Shown piece by piece: positions 49,222-64,000 of a stretch of 64,000 nucleotides of DNA. This stretch comes from Bdellovibrionales bacterium (GTDB lineage: Bacteria; Bdellovibrionota; Bdellovibrionia; Bdellovibrionales; CAYMLA01): assembly GCA_965217115.1 (NCBI GenBank), contig OZ244239.1, forward strand, positions 1,760,001-1,824,000. Reading direction: 5' to 3'. The notes beneath the pieces are model-generated. The model made no database searches. It had not been told where the DNA came from and saw only the letters and a program-made list of their open reading frames with translations. Made by a program: the position numbers and the translations under genes. Positions within the stretch are counted from its first letter, which is position 1. Each line of letters opens with the position of its first letter.

Positions 49222-50499
49222 TCAAATAGTTATAGTTGCGGGAAACAATTCATCTATGTTTATTTTATAGGATTTTATACGATCGTTTAATGTACTCTTA
49301 GGCAGTCCCAATGCTGCGGCTGTTTGTCGCTGGTTTCCTCTGTTGGCTTTAAGGAATTTCAGGATCATTTTTTTCTCCATTTGCTTAATAATGGATAAGC
49401 CGTTCTTCTTATCAAATCCTTCTTTGAGTGATGGGGATTCGATGTTTTCTTTGAAGCATCTGTCAATCAATGAAGGAATGTGTTCTTTGAGGACACGTTT
49501 TTCCTTGTAAAGGGCTGAAGCCCTTAGAATCGTATTTTTTAACTCACGAATGTTTCCGGGCCAAGAGTGTTTTTTTAACTCTTCTATCGCGTCATGTGAA
49601 AAACAGGCGTGGTTATTTTTGCAAAATTGAAATAGCAGAGATTCAAAGTCCTCCATACGTTCGATCAATGATGGAGGCGTGATTTGTAGAATGGCTAAAC
49701 GGTAGTACAGATCTGCACGAAAAGTTCCCTGTTGTACTTTTTTCTGTAGATTCTGATGGGTGGCTGCGAGAATACGAGTGTCTGTTGTAATAGAATGATC
49801 GCTGCCGACGGGTTTGATTTCTTGGTTTTCAAGGGCTCTAAGAAGTTTTGCCTGTAGATTGGGAGAGAGATCACCTATTTCATCGAGAAAAAGAGTGCCG
49901 TTACGAGCCGTTTCAAAAGCTCCTTTGCGATCACCCGTGGCACCAGTGAAGCTTCCCCTAACATGACCAAAGAGTTCGCTTTCGATAAGAGACTCAGATA
50001 AGGCGCAGCAGTTGACGCTGATAAAAGGGCCTTTTTTTCTTGGAGAAAGACGGTGTATTTCATTGGCTAGAATATCTTTTCCTGTCCCAGATGGACCGAG
50101 AAGAAGAATGGAAAAATTATTATCAGCTAATCGTGGCAGGGAGAGTAGCTGCTCCTGCCATTTTTGATTGTGACTAGATAATTGACATTCGGGGAGTTTT
50201 CGAGTGTGAAAGGAGAGAGTTTGTTCTCCTATTTGTATAGAGTCTCCGTGGTGTAGGTGGGCCTCTAAAATTTGAGTTCCATTGACGTAGGTTCCTGTGG
50301 CAGAGCGAAGATCACGAATAATAAAACCCTGGGGTTTTGCCTCAATTCTCGCGTGCCTTGGAGAGACAGAGCTGTCTTCGTCAAAGGACAGTTGATTGAT
50401 GGGGTCTTGCCCGATGGTGAACAATTCAGAGATTGAGAGGCATTCTTTTTTTCTGTCCTGATTCCAGATGAGGACTGGGGTATTACTTTCTTTTTGCAT
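49222..50499 (-). CDS. FHA-domain sigma54-dependent transcriptional activator
   Basis: FHA (VSPRHA, DLRSATGTYVNG), GPSGTGKD, ESELFGH..GSFTGA, FRADLYYRL, WPGNIREL, C-terminal HTH. Confidence 0.95.
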   Translation of the reverse strand: MQKESNTPVLIWNQDRKKECLSISELFTIGQDPINQLSFDEDSSVSPRHARIEAKPQGFIIRDLRSATGTYVNGTQILEAHLHHGDSIQIGEQTLSFHTRKLPECQLSSHNQKWQEQLLSLPRLADNNFSILLLGPSGTGKDILANEIHRLSPRKKGPFISVNCCALSESLIESELFGHVRGSFTGATGDRKGAFETARNGTLFLDEIGDLSPNLQAKLLRALENQEIKPVGSDHSITTDTRILAATHQNLQKKVQQGTFRADLYYRLAILQITPPSLIERMEDFESLLFQFCKNNHACFSHDAIEELKKHSWPGNIRELKNTILRASALYKEKRVLKEHIPSLIDRCFKENIESPSLKEGFDKKNGLSIIKQMEKKMILKFLKANRGNQRQTAAALGLPKSTLNDRIKSYKINIDELFPATITI

Positions 50500-51314: not shown

Positions 51315-52078
51315 GTGTGCAAAATAAAAAAGTCATAGGAGTTATTCCCGCTCGTTATGGTTCTACTCGTTTTCCTGGAAAGCCTTTAGCATTAATAAAT
51401 GGCAAACCTCTTTTACAGTGGGTGATCGAAGGAGTGCAGAGCAGTGAGATTATAAAATCATTTATTGTGGCAACAGACGATCAGCGTATTATTCACTTGG
51501 TTGAAGAATTGGGGGGAAATTATAATAATTTAGAAGCAGTTATGACAGATCATGATTTACCGACAGGAACAGATCGAGTGTGGCAAGCAGCTAAAAATAT
51601 TGATTGTGATGTTGTTGTAAACATTCAGGGAGATGAACCTTTAATACGTGGAGACATCATTGATCAGCTCTGCCAGCCTTTTTTGAAAAAAGAAAATTTG
51701 GATATGGCGACATTGGGTCGAGAATTCACAACAGTGGAAGAAGTGGAGTCTGTGAATACGGCAAAAATCGTTTTGAACCAATATGGGGAGGCGGTTTATT
51801 TCAGCCGTTACCCTATTCCCTATTCTCGTGAGAAACTTTCCTCTGACGGAAAACTCGGAGGATGTTTAAAGCATATAGGTATGTATGCTTATAGTAAGAG
51901 TTTTTTACAAAAATTTTGTAAACAAGAACCTGTGGCTATGGAAAAGCTTGAGGGATTAGAACAATTGCGAGCTTTGCACTTAGGAGCTAAAATTGAAGTG
52001 GTTCGTGTAGATTCAGATAGTTGGGGAGTAGATACTCTTGAAGATATAAATAAAATAGAAAATTTAATGTTAACTTAA
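51311..52078 (+). CDS. kdsB: CMP-KDO synthetase
   Basis: IPARYGSTRFPGKPL, TGTDR, NIQGDEP, LEQLRAL. Confidence 0.96.
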   Translation: MSVQNKKVIGVIPARYGSTRFPGKPLALINGKPLLQWVIEGVQSSEIIKSFIVATDDQRIIHLVEELGGNYNNLEAVMTDHDLPTGTDRVWQAAKNIDCDVVVNIQGDEPLIRGDIIDQLCQPFLKKENLDMATLGREFTTVEEVESVNTAKIVLNQYGEAVYFSRYPIPYSREKLSSDGKLGGCLKHIGMYAYSKSFLQKFCKQEPVAMEKLEGLEQLRALHLGAKIEVVRVDSDSWGVDTLEDINKIENLMLT

Positions 52079-52116
52079 TTTTTTAGATTTAACTTGAGAA
52101 AGGGAAAAATTCTACT

Positions 52117-53814
52117 GTGGCTAAAAAAGTGAAAAAAACTATTCAAAAAAAATCGGTAAGAACAAAGAAAGCTTCATCTCGAGCAGTAAAAAATTCTTTG
52201 GAGAGGAAGTTTATCTTTGTGACGGGAGGAGTTGTATCCTCCATAGGTAAAGGTTTGGCGGCGGCGAGTCTAGCAACATTGCTAGAGGCGCGTGGGGTGA
52301 ATGTCACCATGATGAAATGTGACCCCTATATCAATGTGGACCCAGGGACGATGTCTCCTCTGCAACATGGAGAGGTTTATGTCACTGAGGATGGTGCGGA
52401 AACGGATTTGGATTTAGGTCATTATGAGAGATTTACATCGGCTCATTTGAGTCGAGCCAACAGTGTTAGCGCAGGGCAGGTTTATGAGAGTGTGATAGCT
52501 AAAGAGCGCCGTGGGGATTACTTGGGAGGAACAGTGCAGATAATTCCTCATATAACTAACGAGATTAAACGCTGTATTTGCAAGGCAAGCGAAGGGTTTG
52601 AAGTGATCATCGTGGAGATCGGCGGTACGGTAGGAGATATTGAAGGGTTGCCTTTTCTGGAAGCTATTCGACAGATGAGGGTGGATGTTGGTATTGAGAA
52701 TTCGCTTCTTATTCATGTAACCTATGTTCCCTATATAGCTGCGGCGGGAGAGTTGAAAAGTAAGCCTACGCAACATTCGGTTAAAGAGTTACAAAAAATT
52801 GGGTTAATTCCAGATTTTTTAGTTTGTCGCACAGAAAAAAAGATATCTAAAGATATTCGTAATAAAATAGGTCTTTTTTGTAACGTTAAAGTAGAGAATG
52901 TTATTGAGGCTGTAGATGCGACAACTATTTATGATGTGCCTTTGATGATGCACGATCAAGGTTTAGATATAAAAGTAACAAATAGATTGAACCTTAAAGT
53001 GAATAAACCTTCTTTGGCAGCTTGGAAAAAGATGGTCAATACGATTAAGAGCCCAAAAAATTCTCTGACCATTGGAATCATAGGTAAATATGTGGGGTTA
53101 AAGGAGAGCTATAAATCTCTACATGAGTCTCTTGTCCACGGAAGCATAGCTAATGAGGTAGAGATCAATATTGTGTATATAGATTCTGAAAAAATCAATA
53201 AGTCTAATGTGTCTCGTGCTTTAAAAGGTTTGCATGGAGTTCTTGTTCCAGGGGGATTTGGTGAGCGAGGTATTGAGGGAAAAATGATAGCTATAGGTTA
53301 TGCCCGTGAGAAGGAAATTCCATTCTTTGGAATTTGTCTAGGTATGCAGTTGGCTGCTATTGAGTTTGCTCGCAATGTGTGTGGTTTTAAAAAAGCTAAC
53401 AGTCGTGAGTTTTCTAAAACTCTTAAAGGGGAAAAGAGTTTTGTAATTGATTTTATGGAGGAACAAAAATCAGTTAAAGACAAAGGTGGAACTATGCGCT
53501 TAGGAGCTTATCCTTGTCATATTTCAGGAAAAACTCGCTTGTCCTCTATTTACAAAAACAAGGTGATTCATGAACGACATCGCCATCGTTTTGAGTTTAA
53601 TAATGATTATAAAGATATTTTTGCAAAAAATGGTATGTTAGCTTCAGGAATATGTCGAGAGAGAAATTTGGTGGAAGTCTTAGAGGTCAGTAAACATCCT
53701 TGGTTTGTGGGAGTGCAGTTTCATCCGGAGTTCAAATCTCGACCGACACAGCCACACCCATTATTTACTAGTTTTGTTAAAGCATCTTTAGCCAAGAAGA
53801 GAGGGCGTTTATGA
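52117..53814 (+). CDS. pyrG: CTP synthase
   Basis: FVTGGVVSSIGKG, PYINVDPGTMSP, GICLGMQ, QFHPEF. Confidence 0.98.
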   Translation: MAKKVKKTIQKKSVRTKKASSRAVKNSLERKFIFVTGGVVSSIGKGLAAASLATLLEARGVNVTMMKCDPYINVDPGTMSPLQHGEVYVTEDGAETDLDLGHYERFTSAHLSRANSVSAGQVYESVIAKERRGDYLGGTVQIIPHITNEIKRCICKASEGFEVIIVEIGGTVGDIEGLPFLEAIRQMRVDVGIENSLLIHVTYVPYIAAAGELKSKPTQHSVKELQKIGLIPDFLVCRTEKKISKDIRNKIGLFCNVKVENVIEAVDATTIYDVPLMMHDQGLDIKVTNRLNLKVNKPSLAAWKKMVNTIKSPKNSLTIGIIGKYVGLKESYKSLHESLVHGSIANEVEINIVYIDSEKINKSNVSRALKGLHGVLVPGGFGERGIEGKMIAIGYAREKEIPFFGICLGMQLAAIEFARNVCGFKKANSREFSKTLKGEKSFVIDFMEEQKSVKDKGGTMRLGAYPCHISGKTRLSSIYKNKVIHERHRHRFEFNNDYKDIFAKNGMLASGICRERNLVEVLEVSKHPWFVGVQFHPEFKSRPTQPHPLFTSFVKASLAKKRGRL

Positions 53815-54797
53815 AGAGTGAAAATATAAGGAAAGAGGCCATTCGAGTTTTAAAAATGGAGGCCGAGGGGGTTTTGTCTCTTATTGATCGGATTGATGAA
53901 AGCTTTGAAAAATCTGTTGAGATGATTTTAAATTGTAAAGGTAAGATTGTTGTTACAGGAATGGGAAAGTCAGGTCAAATTGGGCGTAAAATTTCCAGTA
54001 CAATGAGTTCGACAGGAACGTCGTCTGTGTTCATGCATCCAGCCGAGAGTGTACATGGAGATCTTGGTGTTATTAGCAATCAGGATCTAGTGATTGCTAT
54101 TAGCAACAGTGGTGAATCGTTGGAGCTTGATTACGTCGTGAAGTATGTTGTGCGTAAAGGAATTTCCTTGATTGCAATGACAGGTAATCCGGAGAGCACT
54201 TTGGGTCGGTCTAGTGATGTGGTTCTTAATATAGGTGTCGAAAAAGAGGCGTGCTCTTTGGGATTAGCTCCAACAACGAGTTCCACGGCGACATTGGCTA
54301 TGGGTGACGCATTGGCGATGACGGTCTTAAAGGCAAAGGGATTTCAAGAATCAGATTATGCTGAATTTCACCCTGGCGGAAGTTTAGGACGTCGCTTGCT
54401 AACACATGTGCAGGATGTAATGCATAGTAAAAGGGCGTTGCCATTAGTCCCTTTAGGGACACCCATGCGCGAGGTTTTTTCACTAATGACCTCTAAAGAG
54501 GTGAGGGGTGTTGCGGGAGTTGTTGATGCTCAAGGAGACTTGATTGGAATTGTCACTGATGGAGATGTGCGTCGGCTATTAGATAAGAAGGAAAATTCTT
54601 TTGATTGCAAGGTTGAAGAGATAATGGGACGTAATCCTAAAACCATCGATGTTCTTGAGATGGCAGAGAAGGCTTTGTTTATGATGGAGCAGTTTAAAAT
54701 ACTTCTTCTCTTTGTTGTGGACGGTAAGTCGTCGCAGCCAAGAAGTCCTGTGGGGATTTTGCATTTGCATGATTTGATTGATTCCAAAATACGGTGA
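53811..54797 (+). CDS. kdsD: Arabinose-5-phosphate isomerase KdsD (SIS + CBS)
   Basis: GMGKSG, HGDLG, APTTS, HPGGSLG, CBS pair. Confidence 0.95.
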   Translation: MKSENIRKEAIRVLKMEAEGVLSLIDRIDESFEKSVEMILNCKGKIVVTGMGKSGQIGRKISSTMSSTGTSSVFMHPAESVHGDLGVISNQDLVIAISNSGESLELDYVVKYVVRKGISLIAMTGNPESTLGRSSDVVLNIGVEKEACSLGLAPTTSSTATLAMGDALAMTVLKAKGFQESDYAEFHPGGSLGRRLLTHVQDVMHSKRALPLVPLGTPMREVFSLMTSKEVRGVAGVVDAQGDLIGIVTDGDVRRLLDKKENSFDCKVEEIMGRNPKTIDVLEMAEKALFMMEQFKILLLFVVDGKSSQPRSPVGILHLHDLIDSKIR

Positions 54798-54817
54798 TTG
54801 ATTTTGGCAGAGAAGGC

Positions 54818-54934
54818 GCTTTTTTAATGGACCTCCATTCTTTAGTTCAGACATGCGTTTGGCAGCGGCGCTCGCCTAAGGCGAGCATCGCACCAAGCCG
54901 AACTCACTAAAGAATAGAGGTCCATGAAAAAAGC
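54818..54934. repeat. 117-bp palindromic element, copy 1
   Basis: 29-bp arms GCTTTTTTAATGGACCTCCATTCTTTAGT / ACTAAAGAATAGAGGTCCATGAAAAAAGC, inner palindrome GCTCGCCT-A-AGGCGAGC. Confidence 0.92.
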
Positions 54935-54979
54935 TCTTTTTGAAAATCGCATGGGACTGGGGACAGCGGGGGGTAGAGA

Positions 54980-55154
54980 GGGAACAGCGAGGGGGACAGC
55001 GAGGGGAACAGCGAGGGGGACAGCGAGGGGGACAGCGAGGGGGACAGCGAGGGGGACAGCGAGGGGGACAGCGAGGGGGACAGCGAAGGGGACAGTGAAG
55101 GGGACAGTGAAGGGGACAGTGAAGGGAACAGTGAAGGGAACAGCGTGGGAACAG
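54980..55154 (+). repeat. G-rich 12/11-bp VNTR, copy 1 (about 14 units)
   Basis: GGGRACAGYGAR units plus an 11-bp GGGAACAGCGT variant. Confidence 0.95.
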
Positions 55155-55404
55155 AAATAATCCTGATTTTACAGGAAAAAATGTTCTTAATGAATGTAAA
55201 GCCAAGTCTGAAGCCTGTAGTCTTGCAAGCACAACGATAATAGGAAGTGGTCTTATTTCTTGTGCCATTAAGAGCACTGCAAGAGTTGAGTAAATCTAAA
55301 ACTCTAGGTAAATAATCAAGCATTCCCCTTTGTAGAACGAAAGCTAGGGATTAACCGCTCAACGCTCCACAACTGGGATAGTTTTTAGCGTGACTCTAAA
55401 AGAA

Positions 55405-55698
55405 TTAGAGACATTCTTCTGGGGTCATCAATTTGTGCGTAAGAAGGAGGAATGATTTTTCCCTTGCATCTTCTTCTGACCTAAAACATCTAGCAAATGC
55501 CTGGCCATCATTAAGAGTAAGGGAAGCATAAACTATGCACGAAGGATCATTAGGTATACTTATATATTTTATCTTACTCTTGCAGATACTCCATTTATCA
55601 ACATCTTCTGATTCACAGCCTCCATTAGATTCAGCTAGGGTGGCTTCTCCAAATGAGAACATTAATCCGAGTACAAGCAGTGATAATGTCTTTTTCAT
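55405..55698 (-). CDS. Small secreted Cys-containing protein (cargo A1)
   Basis: AGGAG SD, signal peptide MKKTLSLLVLGLMFSFGEATLA, 5 Cys; near-identical paralog at 56538. Confidence 0.8.
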   Translation of the reverse strand: MKKTLSLLVLGLMFSFGEATLAESNGGCESEDVDKWSICKSKIKYISIPNDPSCIVYASLTLNDGQAFARCFRSEEDAREKSFLLLTHKLMTPEECL

Positions 55699-55930
55699 TT
55701 TTTTTCTCCTAATAATTGAGTATCGTTCTGTTTCCTTGGGAGATTAATTCTCCTAAATCTGACTGATACCGTTAATTTCTAAGGTTCTAGAGTACATATT
55801 CTATGCCATGGAGAAAATAGCTCAGACATCAATCTATCGGTAGTTGAGCTCTTTTGAGGTGTCTAGCCCCTAGCGTAGATTGTCAGTTTGGAGTTTTAAA
55901 AGAGGTTTTTCCTGGGTTCTTTCCCTTTTT
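55699..55930 (-). promoter_or_regulatory. Conserved ~230-bp leader/promoter block, copy 1 (also 57827-58058, 61357-61588)
   Basis: Near-identical block upstream of A1, B1 and B2. Contains the RBS, a GGAGA-N6-TCTCC hairpin and sigma54-like TGGCATAGAATATGT (55794-55808). Confidence 0.75.
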
Positions 55931-55998
55931 TGTGGATGGGAAATCGTCGCAGCCAAGAGATCTTGTGGGGATTTTGCATTTGTATGATTTGATTGATT
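55931..55998 (+). pseudogene. Duplicated kdsD 3' tail (20-bp deletion at end)
   Basis: VDGKSSQPRDLVGILHLYDLID versus native VDGKSSQPRSPVGILHLHDLID. Confidence 0.85.
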
Positions 55999-56012
55999 TT
56001 GGCAGAGAAGGC

Positions 56013-56129
56013 GCTTTTTTAATGGACCTCCATTCTTTAGTTCAGACATGCGTTTGGCAGCGGTGCTCGCCTAAGGCGAGCATCGCACCAAGCCGAACTC
56101 ACTAAAGAATGGAGGTCCATGAAAAAAGC
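56013..56129. repeat. 117-bp palindromic element, copy 2
   Basis: Near-identical to 54818-54934. Confidence 0.92.
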
Positions 56130-56175
56130 TCTTTTTGAAAATCGCATGGGACTGGGGACAGCGGGGGGTAGAGAG

Positions 56176-56287
56176 GGAACAGCGTGGGAACAGCGAGGGG
56201 GACAGCGAAGGGGACAGCGTGGGGACAGCGAAGGGAACAGCGAAGGGGACAGTGAAGGGGACAGTGAAGGGAACAGCGTGGGAACAG
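56176..56287 (+). repeat. G-rich VNTR, copy 2 (about 9 units)
   Basis: Same unit, with three 11-bp variants. Confidence 0.92.
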
Positions 56288-56537
56288 AAATAGTCCTGAT
56301 TTTACAGAAAAAAATGTTCTTAATGAATGTAAAGCCAAGTCTGAAGCTTGTAGTCTTGCAAGCACAACGATAATAGGAAGTGGTCTTATTTCTTGTGCCG
56401 TTAAGAGCACTGCAAGAGATGAGTAAATCTAAAACTCTAGGTAAATAATCAAGCATTCCCCTTTGTAGAACGAAAGCTAGGGATTAACCGCTCAACGCTC
56501 CACAACTGGGATAGTTTTTAGCGTGACTCTAAAAGAA

Positions 56538-56828
56538 TTAGAGACATTCTTCTGGGGTCATCAATTTGTGCGTAAGGAGGAATGAATTTTCCCTTGCATC
56601 TTCTTCTGACCTAAAACATTTAGCAAATGTCTGGCCATCATTAAGAGTAAGGGAAGCATAAACTATGCACGAAGGATCATTAGGTATACTTATATATTTT
56701 ATCTTACTCTTACAGATACTCCATTTATCAACATCTTCTGATTCACAGCCTCCATTAGATTCAGCTAGGGTGGCTTCTCCAAATGAGAACATTAATCCGA
56801 GTACAAGCAGTGATAATGTCTTTTTCAT
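56538..56828 (-). CDS. Small secreted Cys-containing protein (cargo A2)
   Basis: Paralog of 55405-55698 with 3 amino acid changes and 1 codon deletion. Confidence 0.8.
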   Translation of the reverse strand: MKKTLSLLVLGLMFSFGEATLAESNGGCESEDVDKWSICKSKIKYISIPNDPSCIVYASLTLNDGQTFAKCFRSEEDARENSFLLTHKLMTPEECL

Positions 56829-56916
56829 TTTTTTTCTCCTAATAATTGAGTATCGTTCTGTTTCATAAGTAGGCTATTTAATAATGAACCAATACTCATG
56901 TTCCAATAGATGAAGA

Positions 56917-56947
56917 AGGCAGGTTTTAGATAGTCTAAAACCTGCCT
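56917..56947 (-). terminator. Terminator of cargo B1 (duplicated at 60274-60304)
   Basis: Perfect 14-bp stem AGGCAGGTTTTAGA-TAG-TCTAAAACCTGCCT. Confidence 0.75.
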
Positions 56948-56956
56948 ATGATTATT

Positions 56957-57826
56957 TTATTTTTTCCCTACTCTTGCAGCAGTCTTTTTGGGGTCTATCT
57001 TAGTTTGAGAGTTAGTTTTCTGGTTTACTACATTACGCACAACTCTTCCTTCTCCCTTAGCTAGATTAACTATCTTTTTTATAAGAGAAAGATCTCTAAA
57101 ACGTCGTTTAGCGAGGTGGTCCCGCCCTTCTTCATATAGTTCATTTATAATATTAGCATCAGAGTCACGAAATCTAGTCGATATACTCAGAAATCTCTCT
57201 ATTTGTGCCTCTGTTGGCTTTCCATCCACAAATAATTTGAAATACTCTTTCAATATATGCTCCCATACAGCATCTACTTCAACACGCTTTACACGATCGA
57301 TCTCAGTTAGAGCAGGCCAATTTTTTGGTGTTGTTTTAAACTCCTTCTCAGAATTCGTATTCACCATCACTTCTTGCGCTTCTGCTGCTAATCTATGCAT
57401 AATAAGAAACCTAAGTTTACGAAAGTTATGCGATATATCCAGAAATCTTCCCTTTTGTTCTATGTTTGGCGTTGTCATCAAAAATGATCTGAGATTCTCT
57501 TTCAATATATGCTCCCACCCAGCATCTACTTCAGCACGTCTTACACGATTGATCTTAGTTAGAGCGAGCCACTTTTCTGGTGTTGTTCCCAACTTGCTAA
57601 AGACTTCTTGTGCAAATTCTGACATTGCAGAAGTATAAAGCGCGCTCCCGTGGATATACTTAGCTCTTTCACTTCCGAAGAACGAAGAAAATACTGTTTT
57701 AGCCTCTCTCTCATTTGTTACTAGAACCTTATCTTGACCCTCGCCATATGGTATAGATACAGCTAGGGTGGATTCTCCAAATGAAAACATTAATCCGAGT
57801 ACAAGCAGTGATAATGTCTTTTTCAT
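56957..57826 (-). CDS. Secreted helical-repeat protein (cargo B1)
   Basis: Same signal peptide as A; internal repeat TTPxxWxALTxIxRVxRxEVDAxWEHILKE x2. Confidence 0.8.
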   Translation of the reverse strand: MKKTLSLLVLGLMFSFGESTLAVSIPYGEGQDKVLVTNEREAKTVFSSFFGSERAKYIHGSALYTSAMSEFAQEVFSKLGTTPEKWLALTKINRVRRAEVDAGWEHILKENLRSFLMTTPNIEQKGRFLDISHNFRKLRFLIMHRLAAEAQEVMVNTNSEKEFKTTPKNWPALTEIDRVKRVEVDAVWEHILKEYFKLFVDGKPTEAQIERFLSISTRFRDSDANIINELYEEGRDHLAKRRFRDLSLIKKIVNLAKGEGRVVRNVVNQKTNSQTKIDPKKTAARVGKK

Positions 57827-58058
57827 TTTTTTTCTCCTAATAATTGAGTATTGATCTATTTCCTTGGGAGATTAATTCTCCTAAATCTGACTAATACCGT
57901 TAATTTCTAAGGTTCTAGAGTACATATTCTATGCCATGGAGAAAACAGCTCAGACATCAATCTATCGGTAGTTGAGCTCTTTTGAGGTGTCTAGCCTCTA
58001 GCGTAAATTGTCAGTTTGGAGTTTTAAAAGAGGTTTTTCCTGGGTTCTTTTCCTTTTT

Positions 58059-58140
58059 TGTGGATGGGAAGTCGTCGCAGCCAAGAGATCTTGTGGGGAT
58101 TTTGCATTTGTATGATTTGATTGATTCCAAAATACGGTGA
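58059..58140 (+). pseudogene. Duplicated kdsD 3' tail including stop
   Basis: ...GATTCCAAAATACGGTGA, same as the native end at 54797. Confidence 0.88.
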
Positions 58141-58160
58141 TTGATTTTGGCAGAGAAGGC

Positions 58161-58277
58161 GCTTTTTTAATGGACCTCCATTCTTTAGTTCAGACATGCG
58201 TTTGGCAGCGATGCTCGCCTAAGGCGAGCATCGCACCAAGCCGAACTCACTAAAGAATAGAGGTCCATGAAAAAAGC
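58161..58277. repeat. 117-bp palindromic element, copy 3
   Basis: Inner palindrome is perfect here: GCGATGCTCGCCT-A-AGGCGAGCATCGC. Confidence 0.92.
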
Positions 58278-58322
58278 TCTTTTTGAAAATCGCATGGGAC
58301 TGGGGACAACGGGGGGTAGAGA

Positions 58323-58491
58323 GGGAACAGCGTAGGAACAGCGAAGGGGACAGTGAAGGGAACAGTGAAGGGAACAGCGTGGGAACAGCGAGGGGGACAG
58401 CGAAGGGGACAGCGAAGGGAACAGTGAAGGGAACAGTGAAGGGGACAGCGAAGGGAACAGTGAAGGGAACAGTGAAGGGGACAGCGAAGGG
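58323..58491 (+). repeat. G-rich VNTR, copy 3 (about 14 units)
   Basis: Same unit, different order of variants. Confidence 0.92.
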
Positions 58492-58657
58492 TGATTGATT
58501 TTGGTAGAGAAGGTACTTGTTACTTTAGTTACAAATATAGTGATCTCGAAGAGTATTGTTGAAAATGAGTTGACAAGTAATCGAGGTAGTTAGGAAAAGG
58601 GAACCCGCACATTCTCTATTGAACAAGTTCTGAACAAAGCCTCTAAACTACCGTATT

Positions 58658-60202
58658 TTAAGTTTCATTGAGAATATTTAATAGGATCTTTTTTTCAAAG
58701 CCGAATATATAAAATCTATGAAGCATTTTAAGGTAATCTTTTGATTGTTCTTTCTCCAAGGCCATTACCTTAAAAGAGTTAAACACATCTAAGAAATTCT
58801 TAGAGGCATTTATATCATCAAAAATATTTTTTAATATTGGGTATTGAGAAATTTTATCTACGTTGTTGAATTCATTTAAACCTGTTTTAGAAACTGCTGT
58901 TGATAAATATTCATACTCATTTTTATAAAATTTTACAATTTCATCTAATGTGTGTAAAAAAGATTGTTCAAATAAAATCAATTCTTGACGTAGTTCTTCC
59001 GTAGCTACTGTATTTCCTGACTTCTCTCCTAGCTCAATCTTTGCTTTAGTCGATTGAATTATGGATTCTAAGATAAACAGTGTCTCAAAATGTATAGACA
59101 TTATTTTATTTTCTGATTTTGAATTTTTTGGATAATGAAGCATTGGTGGCATAGGTTGATTTTTTTTAATAACAGTACTTGCTATTCTAATAACCTGTTT
59201 TCTTACCTTAAACCCGAAACCCTTAGTGTCGTGTCCAATTCTCCAAAACGCATGCCTAGTTGATTTAATTCCCCTTGTAATTTGATTCTTATATTCGTGA
59301 GGTATAAATAGAGATAAAACTCCACCAGAAACTCCAAACATCATACCTGCAATAGTGCCAGCTCCAGGAAACAATGTCGTTCCAACAACTCCAGCTGTAA
59401 CCATAGAAGTCACTAAAGTAACAAACTCACCAGTGGCAATTCTCTTTCTCCAAGCATTATACAGCCAAAGATTTCTTAATTCATGATTATGCCAAAGAAT
59501 CTTCATCATATTATTAAACACGACCTTAAGAACTCTCCAGTCATCTGCGGAATCAGCTGTGTGTAAAAAAATGCCATATTTAAGTGATCTTCCCAGCAAT
59601 GTCCCTAGCCCTTGAGCTTTCTGATAATCTGATTCATCTTCAATAAGCTCTACTGCCTCAGTATATAATTGCCCACCTAACTCCCAGCCAATAAAAGTGA
59701 CAAAAGTACTAATTCCTGCTTGTAAAAATTTTTTAAGCATTCCATTGGATGTTCCATTTTGTATCAGTGAATTGATAATTTGCAGTGGTTTTGCTGATAT
59801 TCCAGAGACCACTCCAGCTCCGATCAAACTACTCCATATTTCACCAGAATTGACAACATGTCCTGCCGCTTCTTTAATATGAGAAGCAAGAAGGTCCTTA
59901 TCAATTGTTTCAAGTGTTAAATTTGATTGTTCGACATGTTGTCTCACTAAATCAACACCAGTTAATATCATAATAAGCAATATGGCTTGGCCTTGATGGG
60001 CTAACACATTATTTGTATATCTGTTGCTCGCTCTTGTAGATTTACGAGCGGCCTTCTTAGTGAACCTTGCTGCTCTCCAACCACCATAATTCAGAGTAAT
60101 TTTTTCAAGAAAACTTTGACCCTTAGTTGGTGTGTGAATTTGAGCTTGGGACTGATGAGACAGTAAGGTAATAAAAATAAGTATCTTTATAATTATGTTC
60201 AT
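58658..60202 (-). CDS. Secreted/membrane hypothetical protein with glycine-zipper hairpin (cargo C)
   Basis: GAGGGG SD, signal peptide, several hydrophobic helices, TAGVVGTTLFPGAGTIAGMMFGVSGGVLS. Confidence 0.8.
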   Translation of the reverse strand: MNIIIKILIFITLLSHQSQAQIHTPTKGQSFLEKITLNYGGWRAARFTKKAARKSTRASNRYTNNVLAHQGQAILLIMILTGVDLVRQHVEQSNLTLETIDKDLLASHIKEAAGHVVNSGEIWSSLIGAGVVSGISAKPLQIINSLIQNGTSNGMLKKFLQAGISTFVTFIGWELGGQLYTEAVELIEDESDYQKAQGLGTLLGRSLKYGIFLHTADSADDWRVLKVVFNNMMKILWHNHELRNLWLYNAWRKRIATGEFVTLVTSMVTAGVVGTTLFPGAGTIAGMMFGVSGGVLSLFIPHEYKNQITRGIKSTRHAFWRIGHDTKGFGFKVRKQVIRIASTVIKKNQPMPPMLHYPKNSKSENKIMSIHFETLFILESIIQSTKAKIELGEKSGNTVATEELRQELILFEQSFLHTLDEIVKFYKNEYEYLSTAVSKTGLNEFNNVDKISQYPILKNIFDDINASKNFLDVFNSFKVMALEKEQSKDYLKMLHRFYIFGFEKKILLNILNET

Positions 60203-60313
60203 TTTTTATCCCCTCAATTTCATAAGTAGGCTATTTAATAATGAACCAATACTCATGTTCCAATAGATGAAGAAGGCAGGTTTTAGATAGTCTAAAACCT
60301 GCCTATGATTATT

Positions 60314-61356
60314 TTATTTTTTCCCTACTCTTGCAGCAGTCTTTTTGGGGTCTATCTTAGTTTGAGAGTTAGTTTTCTGGTTTACTACATTACGCACAAC
60401 TCTTCCTTCTCCCTTAGCTAGATTAACTATCTTTTTTATAAGAGAAAGATCTCTAAAACGTCGTTTAGCGAGGTGTTTCCGCCCTTTTTCATATAGCTCA
60501 TCTATAATATTAGCGTCAGAGTCACGAAATCTAATCGACATATTCAGAAATTTCTCTACTTGTGCCTCTGTTGGCTTTCCATCCACAAATAATTTGAGAT
60601 TCTCTTTCAATATATGCTCCCATCCAGCATCTACTTCAACACGCTTTACACGATCGATCTCAGTTAGAGCAGGCCACTTTTTTGGTGTTGTTCCAAACTT
60701 ATCAAAGACTTTTTTTGCGAATTTTGACATTTCAGAAGAATAAAGCATGCTCCCGTGGATATCCTTAGCTAACTCACCTCCGAAGAACGAAGAAAACACT
60801 CTTTTAGCTTGCGCTATTCTCATTGTGCTGCAATACCAAACTCCTTCTCAGAATAATTCTCAGATTTCGTATTCACCATCACTTCTCCAAGTGATTTTTG
60901 CCCTTCTGCTACTAATCTATTCATAGTAAGAAAATTAGATTCACGAAAGTTATACGGCGATGTATTCAGAAATCTTCTCTTTTGTTCCATGTTTGGCCTT
61001 GTTCATCAAAAATGATCTGAGATTCTCTTTCAATATATGCTCCCACCCAGCATCTACTTCAGCACGCTTACACGATCGATCTCAGTTAGAGCGAGCCACT
61101 TTTCTGGTGTTGTTCCCAACTTACTAAAGACTTCTTGTGCAAATTCTGACATTGCAGAAGTATAAAGCGCGCTCCCGTGGATATACTTAGCTCTGTTACC
61201 TCCGAAGAACGAAGAAAATACGTTTTTAGCCTCTGCCTGATTTGTTACTAGAGCCTTGCCATATGGTATAGCAACTACACCTGGGGTGGGTTCTCCAAAT
61301 AAAGCTCCACCATAAAAGACTAATCCGAGTACAAGCAGTGATAATGTTTTTTTCAT
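60314..61356 (-). pseudogene. Frameshifted paralog of cargo B (B2)
   Basis: Two ORF fragments homologous to B1; single-base indels near 61067, 61002 and 60826. Confidence 0.75.
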
Positions 61357-61588
61357 TTTTTTTCTCCTAATAATTGGGTATCGATCTATTTCCTTGGGAG
61401 ATTAATTCTCCTAAATCTGACTAATACCGTTAATTTCTAAGGTTCTAGAGTACATATTCTATGCCATGGAGAAAATAGCTCAGACATCAATCTATCGGTA
61501 GTTGAGCTCTTTTGAGGTGTCTAGCCCCTAGCGTAGATTGTCAGTTTGGAGTTTTAAAAGAGGTTTTTCCTGGGTTCTTTTCCTTTTT

Positions 61589-61670
61589 TGTGGATGGGAA
61601 ATCGTCGCAGCCAAGAGATCCTGTGGGGATTTTGCATTTGTATGATTTGATTGATTCCAAAATATGGTGA
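61589..61670 (+). pseudogene. Duplicated kdsD 3' tail
   Basis: Third extra copy of the last ~27 codons of kdsD. Confidence 0.88.
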
Positions 61671-61690
61671 TTGATTTTGGCAGAGAAGGC

Positions 61691-61807
61691 GCTTTTTTAA
61701 TGAACCTCCATTCTTTAGTTCAGACATGCGTTTGGCAGCGGTGCTCGCCTAAGGCGAGCATCGCACCAAGCCGAACTCACTAAAGAATAAAGGTCCATGA
61801 AAAAAGC
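61691..61807. repeat. 117-bp palindromic element, copy 4
   Basis: Near-identical to the other copies; the downstream VNTR is missing. Confidence 0.9.
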
Positions 61808-61883
61808 TCTTTTTGAAAATCGCATGGGACTGGGGACAGCGGGGGGAGGGGGTAGGCGGGGGAACCGCCCAGCAAAGGACAAC

Positions 61884-61950
61884 TCTATGCTATGTGCTTA
61901 AAGGCAACATGACTCAAATTGAAAGTTTACAGACTAATGTGGGAACCGCC
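61884..61950 (-). repeat. Dispersed 50-65-bp repeat, copy c (inverted)
   Basis: Reverse complement closely matches 35003-35068; an extra GGAACCGCC end lies at 61861. Confidence 0.9.
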
Positions 61951-62012
61951 ACCCTATGGTAACTCCTTTGTGGTTTTGTTGTTTTGGTGGGGTGACTATT
62001 TTGCTAAGGATT

Positions 62013-62495
62013 TTACTTGCAAATACCTCGTCTTCTAAGGTTTACAATTTTGTTTTTAAGGATTTTAGTTGCATCAGCTATCTCCTTAACGTATTCCCTC
62101 TGCACAAAAGGAATATCTCCAAATCCGATCTGGGCAATAGGTATTGGTGAAGAATCTCGCACCTGTTCTGTAACTGTTTCTCGGCCTCGTCCGAAGTGAC
62201 GTGTTTTACGATGATAAATACCAAGCTTATAGTCCCAATAGTCCAGAAAGAGCATCTTCTCTTCCGCGGTCATGACCAACAAAAACGGATGACTTATGAG
62301 AAGAATAGGGTCAATCTTCTCAGGCAACCCGCGAGTCCATGAATAGTCAATAAAGCAATCGACAGCAAGTTGAGTCCCAGGCTGCTTACCAGCAAGGCTT
62401 CTTTTTGTGTCAGCATTTAAAGACTGAATCCTTGTACCCATTCCCGAACAAGCAACAAAACTTAAGCTCAACAAGCACAGCATAATTATTTTCAT
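62013..62495 (-). CDS. Hypothetical lipoprotein (cargo D)
   Basis: AGGAG SD, lipoprotein signal MKIIMLCLLSLSFVA-CSG. Confidence 0.8.
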   Translation of the reverse strand: MKIIMLCLLSLSFVACSGMGTRIQSLNADTKRSLAGKQPGTQLAVDCFIDYSWTRGLPEKIDPILLISHPFLLVMTAEEKMLFLDYWDYKLGIYHRKTRHFGRGRETVTEQVRDSSPIPIAQIGFGDIPFVQREYVKEIADATKILKNKIVNLRRRGICK

Positions 62496-62555
62496 AAACA
62501 AATCTCCTATTTATTTTTATTATCAATAAGTGTATCGGACTATTCTCGCTAAAGT

Positions 62556-62599
62556 TAAGCTAGACTAGACTAAGCTAAACTAAACTAAACTAAACTAAA
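62556..62599 (+). repeat. (CTAAA)n pentanucleotide microsatellite upstream of D
   Basis: CTAGA/CTAAG variants followed by CTAAA x5. Confidence 0.9.
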
Positions 62600-62634
62600 G
62601 GCGATTAAGGAGTCAGCTATTAGATAAATAGCTA

Positions 62635-62970
62635 TTAATCTATACACTCCACAAAGACCCTTTCGCCAGGTCTTATTATAACACTCTCGCCTTTATCTAA
62701 ATTAACAATACGGGTTGGCTTGCAAACAGGTAAGTGAGGATTTATATTACAAGGATCTACGATAGCTAGAACAGAGTTTCTTTTTCCGCAAGTTACTAAA
62801 GTTTCTTTTTCAATGCCTTGGAAAAAAAATGAGGGTTGTGTTAAAATAAATTTATCCTGGAAAGACGACGCGAGTTCCCTTTTATTAACCGTTTTAGATG
62901 TTGTTTTTTGCCTCACTCCAGAGCAGGCAACAAAACTTAAACTTAGCAGAGACAGGATAATTATTTTCAT
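62635..62970 (-). CDS. Hypothetical lipoprotein (cargo E)
   Basis: AAAGGA SD, lipoprotein signal MKIIILSLLSLSFVA-CSG, 4 further Cys. Confidence 0.8.
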   Translation of the reverse strand: MKIIILSLLSLSFVACSGVRQKTTSKTVNKRELASSFQDKFILTQPSFFFQGIEKETLVTCGKRNSVLAIVDPCNINPHLPVCKPTRIVNLDKGESVIIRPGERVFVECID

Positions 62971-63027
62971 AGTAAAATCCTTTCGTTTATATTAGTTAAT
63001 TGTAACAAACCTATCGGATTATTTAAG

Positions 63028-63067
63028 CTAAACTAAACTAAACTAAACTAAACTAAACTAAACTAAG
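63028..63067 (+). repeat. (CTAAA)7 microsatellite upstream of E
   Basis: Seven perfect CTAAA units followed by CTAAG. Confidence 0.92.
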
Positions 63068-63187
63068 ATTGACTCTGATAATCTTGTTTAGCTGTTTCCC
63101 AGAAAGGGTTTGGAAGTAGTGTGAAGCATTTGGAAGCCTGTGAAGCTATAAAGGCCAATGAAAATAGTGGGTTAGTGTTCTGGCGGG

Positions 63188-63275
63188 CATTGCACCAAGT
63201 CGAACTTACTAAGGTCCATTAAAAAAGCTCTTTTTGAAAATGGCATGGGTTGGGAACAGAGGAGCAGTGGGGGTC
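63188..63275 (+). repeat. Degenerate right half of the palindromic element plus start of the G-rich tract
   Basis: CATTGCACCAAGTCGAACTTACTAAGGTCCATTAAAAAAGCTCTTTTTGAAAATGGCATGGG matches 54886-54955 with substitutions and a deletion. Confidence 0.8.
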
Positions 63276-63438
63276 CAGTTAGGAAATGAGAAAATGTGGT
63301 GGAGGAGGGGGGGCTGGCAAATATAGCCATAAGTCCTAAGTTAGAGGACTATGCTTGCAGGTATTGTAAAGTTTCTCGACAATGTACTTTAGAGTAAACA
63401 GCGTCTGATTTTTTTTACAGCTTAGAATGAGAGAGAAA

Positions 63439-64000
63439 ATGAAATTATTTTACAGTGCATTTAGATCAGTCCCTATTTTTTGCCTGTTGTGTGCCGTGAA
63501 TTCCTATGGAGCGGTGATTGAGTTTCCTGATTATGAGTTGGCCCCTGAGTCAGTGCTTCCTCTGTTTGATAAAGCAGTGAGTGTCCGTGATCGGCGTATT
63601 GTGAGTAGGGGTCGAATTGAGATGGGTATCTTTTCTGGTTTTTCATTGCTTGAGTCATTCTATAGTCAATACAGTGTTGGTGTTTCGTCGAGCTATCATT
63701 TTAATGAAATCAATGCTCTTCACGCTTCTTTTTTTTACTGGATACCAGGTTTAACTGAGCAAGCTCACTCGTTAAGAGAGAGGCATAATATTTTTCTAGA
63801 AAAAGCCCCGTCTCCAGAGAGTTACTTGACCTTAGAGTATCAGCACTCATCTTTTTATGGAAAAATGAGTATTTCTAAAAACTACGTCATAAACACTCAT
63901 ATCTATGGCCTACTTGGCGGGGGAGTGCAGCTTACTGGGGAGGCAACTTATCCAACGTTTAATTTTGGTTTGGGACAAAAGCTCTATTTCTCAAAATTAT
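63439..64000 (+). CDS. Outer-membrane beta-barrel domain protein (Bdellovibrio/Myxococcales type), partial
   Basis: Hand translation: MKLFYS...IEFPDYELAPESVLPLFD..VSVRDRRI...YHFNE...FYGKMSISK...FGLGQKLYF; open to the window end. Confidence 0.8.
   Translation, partial: MKLFYSAFRSVPIFCLLCAVNSYGAVIEFPDYELAPESVLPLFDKAVSVRDRRIVSRGRIEMGIFSGFSLLESFYSQYSVGVSSSYHFNEINALHASFFYWIPGLTEQAHSLRERHNIFLEKAPSPESYLTLEYQHSSFYGKMSISKNYVINTHIYGLLGGGVQLTGEATYPTFNFGLGQKLYFSKL

Follow-up and report, generated by a model that had tools for sequence, protein, structure and literature searches.

Duplicated kdsD tails in a Bdellovibrionales genome probably belong to a tandem accretion array without an integrase

We analyzed 64,000 nt of the genome of a Bdellovibrionales bacterium (assembly GCA_965217115.1, contig OZ244239.1, positions 1,760,001-1,824,000 of the forward strand; hereafter, the window, whose own numbering is used below), in which the 3' end of the lipopolysaccharide synthesis gene kdsD occurs in three additional copies downstream of the gene. 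The original prediction, made from the letters of the window, took kdsD for an attachment (att) site that had been used repeatedly by integrating elements. The array does have the layout of the scar left by elements that integrate at gene 3' ends, with a gene end duplicated across acquired genes, yet it lacks most of the features that define an integrase site. It is probably a tandem accretion array that arose without an integrase, at a recombination hot spot, from one old junction.

The three copies (T1-T3) are direct repeats of the last 94 nt of kdsD and are 88-90% identical to the native tail T0 (E-values of 1e-22 to 1e-28), so the predicted threefold repetition is real; kdsD itself is intact. 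The tails are located as follows.

54703-54797, plus strand: native kdsD tail T0, conserved residues retained
55921-55998, plus strand: decayed kdsD tail T1, with a 20-nt deletion between short repeats and the stop codon lost
58045-58140, plus strand: decayed kdsD tail T2, with the native stop codon at its end
61575-61670, plus strand: decayed kdsD tail T3, which carries R>W

The repeat was originally described as the last ~27 codons. The codons are indeed repeated, but the homology begins at 54703, ~11 nt to the left of the TTGTGGA motif, and comprises 94 nt plus a 1-nt insertion. Every substitution named at the time was present in the copies to which it had been assigned: GAC>GAT, GGT>GGG, S>D, and H>Y in T1, T2, and T3, and AAG>AAA in T1 and T3. 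In addition, V>F and the 1-nt insertion are common to T1-T3, P>L occurs in T1 and T2, and R>W in T3. The left junction lies at the identical base in all three copies and is preceded by the same ~250-nt block. In comparison with 29 relatives, T0 has the conserved states. At the position of H>Y, 27 of these relatives have Q and two have H, and the position of V>F is never occupied by F. T1-T3 share one junction and derived changes that are absent from the 29 relatives; therefore, they descend from one copy, which had decayed before multiplication. T1-T3 are best explained as functionless passengers.

The excess of synonymous changes on which the att reading partly relied was not significant. The 27 codons contain 19.0 synonymous and 62.0 non-synonymous sites, and the synonymous/non-synonymous changes numbered 3/5 in T1, 2/5 in T2, and 3/5 in T3 (binomial p = 0.28, 0.52, and 0.28, respectively). 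For the union of changes in T1-T3, 3 of 9 were synonymous (p = 0.36). A mild synonymous lean would be expected anyway, because only synonymous changes persist in a functional gene, whereas a dead copy retains changes of every kind. Duplicated gene tails with synonymous differences alone are no proof of an attachment site.

The tails form the middle of a wider repeat unit of ~550 bp, so that their description as the repeat was correct but incomplete. Upstream, T1-T3 share module A (~220-250 nt). Downstream, T0-T3 share the hairpin B1, followed by a 12-nt variable-number tandem repeat (VNTR; ~180 nt). The parts of the unit are listed below.

55699-55920, minus strand: module A, copy 1; promoter/leader of a cargo gene, with a -24/-12 motif at 55794-55808
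57827-58044, minus strand: module A, copy 2
61357-61574, minus strand: module A, copy 3
56829-56864, minus strand: truncated module A of cargo gene X2, fused to the end of cargo gene Y
54798-54973, plus strand: hairpin B1, copy 0; begins at the kdsD stop codon, arms 54813-54846 and 54906-54939, core of ~60 nt
54974-55154, plus strand: 12-nt VNTR at the 3' end of B1 copy 0
55993-56287, plus strand: B1 copy 1 and VNTR
58141-58515, plus strand: B1 copy 2 and VNTR; 58492-58515 holds 24 nt left over from another tail-end/B1 start
61671-61846, plus strand: B1 copy 3
63182-63262, plus strand: B1, right half only; older (80% identity), close to the far end of the island

Between T0 and all three copies, 8 of 94 tail positions differ, compared to one hairpin position; when tested as 9/94 versus 1/176, this difference gave p = 0.0004. 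Site 58071 groups T0 with T2 against T1 and T3, and site 58091 groups T0 with T3 against T1 and T2. One tree cannot fit both splits; therefore, recombination or homoplasy is needed to explain them. We propose the following course of events. B1 would have settled directly behind the kdsD stop codon, after which one non-homologous duplication-insertion would have joined the far end of module A, along with an exported-protein gene, to the last 94 nt of kdsD and B1. This single copy, as the common junction and derived changes show, decayed before it multiplied. The array would then have been expanded by unequal crossing-over and gene conversion, presumably of the RecA type, among the long direct repeats (module A, the tail, B1, the VNTR, and the signal-peptide segment). 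The same exchanges would have swapped cargo bodies behind the common promoter and kept the B1 copies near-identical. If crossovers fell mostly in B1 and the VNTR, to the right of the diverged sites, each new tail would reproduce the decayed allele, leaving kdsD itself with T0.

B1 is a non-coding imperfect palindrome of ~180 nt with 70 extragenic matches in the genome, usually followed by the VNTR. It folds strongly (z = -6.8 for copy 0 and -9.5 for copy 2) and has no match at the gathering level in Rfam. Its ~60-nt core is fixed, and its arms vary between loci but are constant within one array. Among the B1 elements located within 70 nt behind a stop codon, 21 are co-oriented with the gene and two are opposite, one of the latter behind a spurious open reading frame (ORF) over the VNTR. 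Of 300 further genomes from the order, 10 contained the strict core pattern. Another repeat family, B2, has 42 matches, a nested palindrome, and ends starting with GGTTCTT, like those of the ISL3 family; the genome contains no ISL3 transposase. Examples of B2 in the host genome (G000) are G000:C1:229229-229453 and 292648-293017, and B2 often lies at the AT-rich far end of module A.

Module A has 19 matches genome-wide, upstream of opposite-strand genes that mostly have signal-peptide-like starts. In 14 of the 19, a TGGCA..G(T/C) motif occurs in -24/-12 register, which we take to be sigma-54-like; rpoN is present in the genome. Folding gave no sign that module A is a structured RNA (z about -1 for either strand), and three weak sub-threshold Rfam matches on module A, from a search over 52000-64000, were rejected. 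As this block is reused before many unrelated exported-protein genes, module A may define a regulon spread by recombination.

The genes and spacers carried between the repeats are given below.

55155-55404, no strand: spacer C, a probable remnant of decayed coding sequence, repeated at 56288-56537 and weakly matched elsewhere in the genome at 1580.5 kb
55405-55698, minus strand: orphan exported protein X1, 97 amino acids (aa), 96% identical to X2
56538-56828, minus strand: orphan exported protein X2
56957-57826, minus strand: orphan exported protein Y, 289 aa, with an internal 84-aa repeat; signal peptide and promoter as in X
58658-60202, minus strand: orphan protein Z, 514 aa, GC content 33.7%, no paralogue in the genome
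60314-61356, minus strand: broken Y paralogue, in pieces at 61054-61356 and 60314-60823
62013-62501 and 62635-62970, minus strand: two small lipoprotein-like orphan genes beyond T3, with N-termini that have paralogues elsewhere in the genome

None of the cargo proteins matched a Pfam or NCBIfam family above the cut-off, and a query of the ESM Atlas with Y gave no usable match. Runs of the pentamer TAAAC occur just upstream of the two small lipoprotein-like genes (62548-62606 and 63017-63074) and are possible phase-variable promoters.

The host genome is closed (2.17 Mb, 39.6% GC). The island is bordered by two core genes.

53811-54797, plus strand: kdsD-type arabinose-5-phosphate isomerase gene of lipopolysaccharide synthesis, with one SIS and two CBS domains
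63427-64000, plus strand: outer-membrane beta-barrel gene (TIGR04565), the usual downstream neighbor of kdsD

The family search placed the product of 53811-54797 in the KpsF/GutQ family, with a score over the cut-off, and kdsB and pyrG precede the gene. In 20 of the 29 relatives, kdsD and the outer-membrane gene are separated by <1.5 kb, compared to 8.6 kb here; therefore, 54798-63426 is an island. Accessory genes thus sit between two core genes that are adjacent in relatives, with mosaic repeats and no mobility gene among them, as in integrase-free hot spots of horizontal gene transfer. Outside the island, the protein encoded at 49222-50499 has, as judged by inspection, an FHA-like N-terminus and a sigma-54 activator domain.

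No recombinase was found among the island ORFs. The genome encodes three tyrosine recombinases: two are of XerC/D size and putatively so named, and one is the integrase of an element resembling an integrative and conjugative element (ICE; G000:C1:743100-767933), which lies between 132-bp repeats at tRNA-Pro. Of a resolvase, an 83-aa remnant is left, 365 kb from the island. Searches of the genome for a large serine recombinase and for Y1, IS110, and ISL3 transposases gave no match (PF01797 (Y1), PF01610, PF02371, and PF07508, 0 each; IS5, IS630, IS1595, IS3, and Cas1 were not searched). A retron-like reverse transcriptase lies ~45 kb past the island (L035:1228-2461; G000:C1:~1868-1870 kb), with its best match, below the cut-off, to the St85 family and a small helix-turn-helix-like gene upstream. 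Both recA and comEC are present. There is no dyad around TTGTGGA (inverted matches at only 5/13 and 0/13 positions). A motif that we take to be XerD-arm-like occurred, at up to two mismatches, 50 times in the window versus 50.3 expected, and not at the junctions.

The locus is contained as contigs in four sequencing runs, all of the same sample and study, possibly the source of the assembly, so they do not count as independent evidence; no RNA run was among the matches listed. The contig depth was 58.8 over gene X compared to ~30 over unique parts, and this doubling fits two real copies. Contigs of one sample contained no module-skipping joint, and none of them spans the array. One X3 contig links a full-length derived tail to spacer C, as either a variant or a collapsed repeat, and was not used. 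A metagenome scan for the tail pattern gave 0 matches.

The kdsD scar has counterparts in the same genome. Among 1593 genes tested, four further non-paralogous genes have a 27-74-nt copy of their tail 1.1-2.8 kb downstream, with cargo between; this count omits paralogue families, the ICE region, one tandem tail repeat, and one match off the gene end. At 919969-921009 lies a gene whose tail recurs, along with B1, in copies of 30-53 nt. With this gene included, at least five genes other than kdsD carry a similar tail scar, which further weakens the view of kdsD as a repeatedly used att site. The far ends of module A could be located by the motif in 14 cases: three lie at the kdsD array, five are associated with B2, and two with neither. 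The other four abut a local direct repeat at three loci, where the junction slides over ~50 nt. The ORF at 1025475 has its 3' end repeated in four tandem copies, followed by a B1 variant on the opposite strand (G000:C1:1025475-1026546).

For the relatives, a profile of the last 48 KdsD residues was searched in 384 genomes of the order. It matched 333 other genomes, 11 of them more than once; short or frameshifted copies may escape the profile, and many genomes are fragmented. G120, from another family, has a local kdsD-tail copy of 62 nt (90% identical) 1.1 kb downstream of the gene (L089:3945-5427). The copy is preceded by a hairpin whose stem measures 42 bp (z = -14), and two orphan genes precede kdsC. 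No recombinase was found within 15 kb of this kdsD, and neither the G120 island nor the host island contains an integrase remnant. The recombinases that the original prediction linked to such tail duplications are thus lacking in both islands. The predicted duplications in relatives do occur, but in only 1 of 333 genomes, a frequency close to the roughly 6 of 1593 across genes of the host genome. The boundary of the G120 copy lies ~30 nt to the right of that in the host genome, which, along with the lack of a dyad, speaks against a crossover near TTGTGGA. G100, a congener of G120, has neither the hairpin nor the tail copy. In G108, ISCR-like and ISL3 transposases surround a 343-nt 3' piece of kdsD (87% identical) that lies 640 kb away from the gene itself (L092:8375-8717). 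The second match in G179 is a 405-nt contig-end overlap, that in G177 is a single gene split in two matches, and the weak matches in other ORFs of the other seven genomes were taken as CBS paralogues. Freely available main texts included no paper combining kdsD, an integration site, and attB.

The relatives also showed where hairpin arms may come from. A stem scoring at least 20 was found behind the kdsD stop codon at 3 of 41 distinct loci (G000, G120, and G013). The two genomes in which the kdsD tail has a local direct copy both show this long stem right behind the stop codon, compared to 1 of 39 other loci (Fisher p about 0.004, for genomes that are selected and related). In G013 (L103), the far arm contains 30 nt of the kdsD end in inverted form, a 3.5-kb island follows, and the core of the hairpin belongs to a different multi-copy family that lies behind stop codons. 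The same genome (L104-L117) has two further conserved-core hairpin families, with several copies behind stop codons and locus-specific arms. Altogether, inverted copies of the end of an upstream gene or tRNA (12-30 nt) were found in the far arms of five hairpins in five other genomes. At L045:1443-1615, the far arm copies 22 nt of a tRNA end, with 55/55 bases matched, and at L041 (2442-2600), L046, and L054 the copied stretches come from coding tails and span 12, 14, and up to 27 nt, respectively. In a survey of 28 B1 hairpins of relatives, the remaining arms were not seen to reach more than a few bases into a gene. Host sequence in a far arm could not have arrived with the element; hence, these arms were at least partly templated at the site. 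This hint that hairpins copy gene ends is the main lead from the comparison. Among the freely available papers listed for palindromic repeats in Bdellovibrio, none concerned the B1 family.

That kdsD served as an att site on three separate occasions, with a crossover at TTGTGGA, is highly improbable. The tail copies are in direct orientation and bracket foreign-looking genes, and related elements would share their end sequence. However, tails acquired independently should have decayed independently, yet V>F, H>Y, and the 1-nt insertion are found in all three, including the outermost T3. The outermost tail should also be the host original, whereas T3 carries derived changes, and beyond it lie two cargo genes and the older half hairpin. 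Moreover, no synonymous excess, core dyad, or recombinase was found. A single site-specific integration that left the first junction, followed by loss of the integrase and tandem duplication, is less strained but still quite unlikely. In this case, the junction would be the relic of an ICE or an integrative and mobilizable element (IME), decayed to a cis-mobilizable element (CIME). PMC5704250 describes IMEs whose tyrosine integrases target housekeeping genes at their 3' ends and which decay into CIMEs, and the genome contains an ICE-like element. A functional allele of foreign origin could account for the two-base S/D change and for the run of three adjacent synonymous changes, and a second kdsD-tail copy exists in G120. 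Against this, the lack of an integrase remnant extends to both islands, the boundaries differ between the two genomes, and the tail adjoins a cargo promoter present at 19 places rather than the end of an element. The direct repeat would have to span the 180-nt hairpin and the VNTR, compared to the 8-60 bp of the att cores given in PMC5704250. With at least six genes with unrelated tails scarred, as many lost integrases would be needed.

The arms in relatives raise another, unlikely, origin for the array: conserved-core hairpins (B1 and its sister families), once nicked or snapped back, might act as primers from which the end of the gene upstream is copied. The locus-specific arms would then be short inverted copies, and longer events with a template switch would give direct tails with captured cargo. 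The inverted gene and tRNA ends in the five far arms argue for such copying. So do the 21 to 2 ratio of co-oriented B1 elements behind stop codons and the coincidence of long stems with direct copies, the sole other stem locus having an inverted copy and an island. On the other hand, no candidate enzyme was identified: Y1/RAYT, IS110, and ISL3 have no match in G000, its lone reverse transcriptase is retron-like, and no mover gene, including Y1, was found among the 32 ORFs flanking B1 in relatives. Most arms stop short of the gene, and no dedicated system would be needed if arms were lengthened by template switching at quasi-palindromes or by selection for an RNA stem. Three of the four further tail scars have no B1 or B2 behind the gene and the copy, G120 was picked after the search, and the kin genomes are not independent. 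The generalization that Bdellovibrionales conserved-core hairpins settle at gene 3' ends and copy the upstream gene end, inverted to form the far arm and at times directly while capturing promoter-bearing exported-protein genes, is likewise unlikely. If true, the kdsD array would represent an undescribed target-templated route of gene capture that mimics att duplication without an integrase. Copying of gene ends by hairpins, if it occurs, would offer a testable mechanism behind the many islands that have duplicated gene tails but no integrase, and behind repeat families in which the stems co-vary between loci.

Accretion from one old junction, followed by recombination among the repeats, remains the probable explanation, and several points weigh against it. 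The origin of the first junction is inferred, not observed. Neither an empty nor an intermediate site was found in a close relative, the nearest KdsD being ~55-61% identical, with 0 metagenome matches. Gene conversion among once-independent copies could have spread the shared changes. The three synonymous changes lie in three consecutive codons beside the junction, a pattern expected of an allele that diverged while functional. Outside the locus, the genome holds no paralogue of X, Y, or Z; with no donor copy there, they have an outside origin or their donors were lost. Finally, the G120 copy in a second family may indicate that kdsD is a favored site.

As it stands, the array is an example of a predator-type bacterium that collects and shuffles exported proteins behind one common promoter module. 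Its hairpins invite comparison with intergenic palindromes such as REP/REPIN, ERIC, and Correia-type elements. Like these, B1 is a palindrome that follows stop codons and numbers tens of copies, some of them arranged in tandem. Unlike these, B1 has no RAYT/Y1 partner and no Rfam match, combines a fixed core with locus-specific arms, and in relatives includes some inverted host ends. Integron arrays alternate hairpins (attC) and single accessory genes, and the kdsD array does likewise. However, its cargo genes have their own promoter and lie on the strand opposite to kdsD, the hairpins within the array share locus-specific arms, and no integron integrase is nearby.

A close parallel is the tandem accretion of ICEs, IMEs, and CIMEs. 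According to PMC5704250, IMEs at gene 3' ends have cores of 8-60 bp, and CIMEs accrete into tandem modules, with direct duplication of the gene end around acquired genes and an intact target, as at kdsD. The kdsD array differs from that description in having no integrase or integrase remnant, a repeat of ~270 nt (tail and hairpin) to ~550 nt, one shared decayed junction, and a boundary that varies between genomes (PMC5704250). Many hot spots of horizontal gene transfer are free of mobile elements, according to PMC5635113; the kdsD island resembles them in having accessory genes between core neighbors, no mobility genes, and both recA and comEC, but is structured by internal direct repeats (gene tail, hairpin, and common promoter). 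In the gene amplification described in PMC1428787, a microhomology junction is followed by RecA-dependent unequal crossing-over, with REP at 4 junctions. One novel junction in every unit and mosaic repeats are common to that process and the kdsD array, whose units, in contrast, hold different cargo and are old and decayed rather than fresh (PMC1428787).

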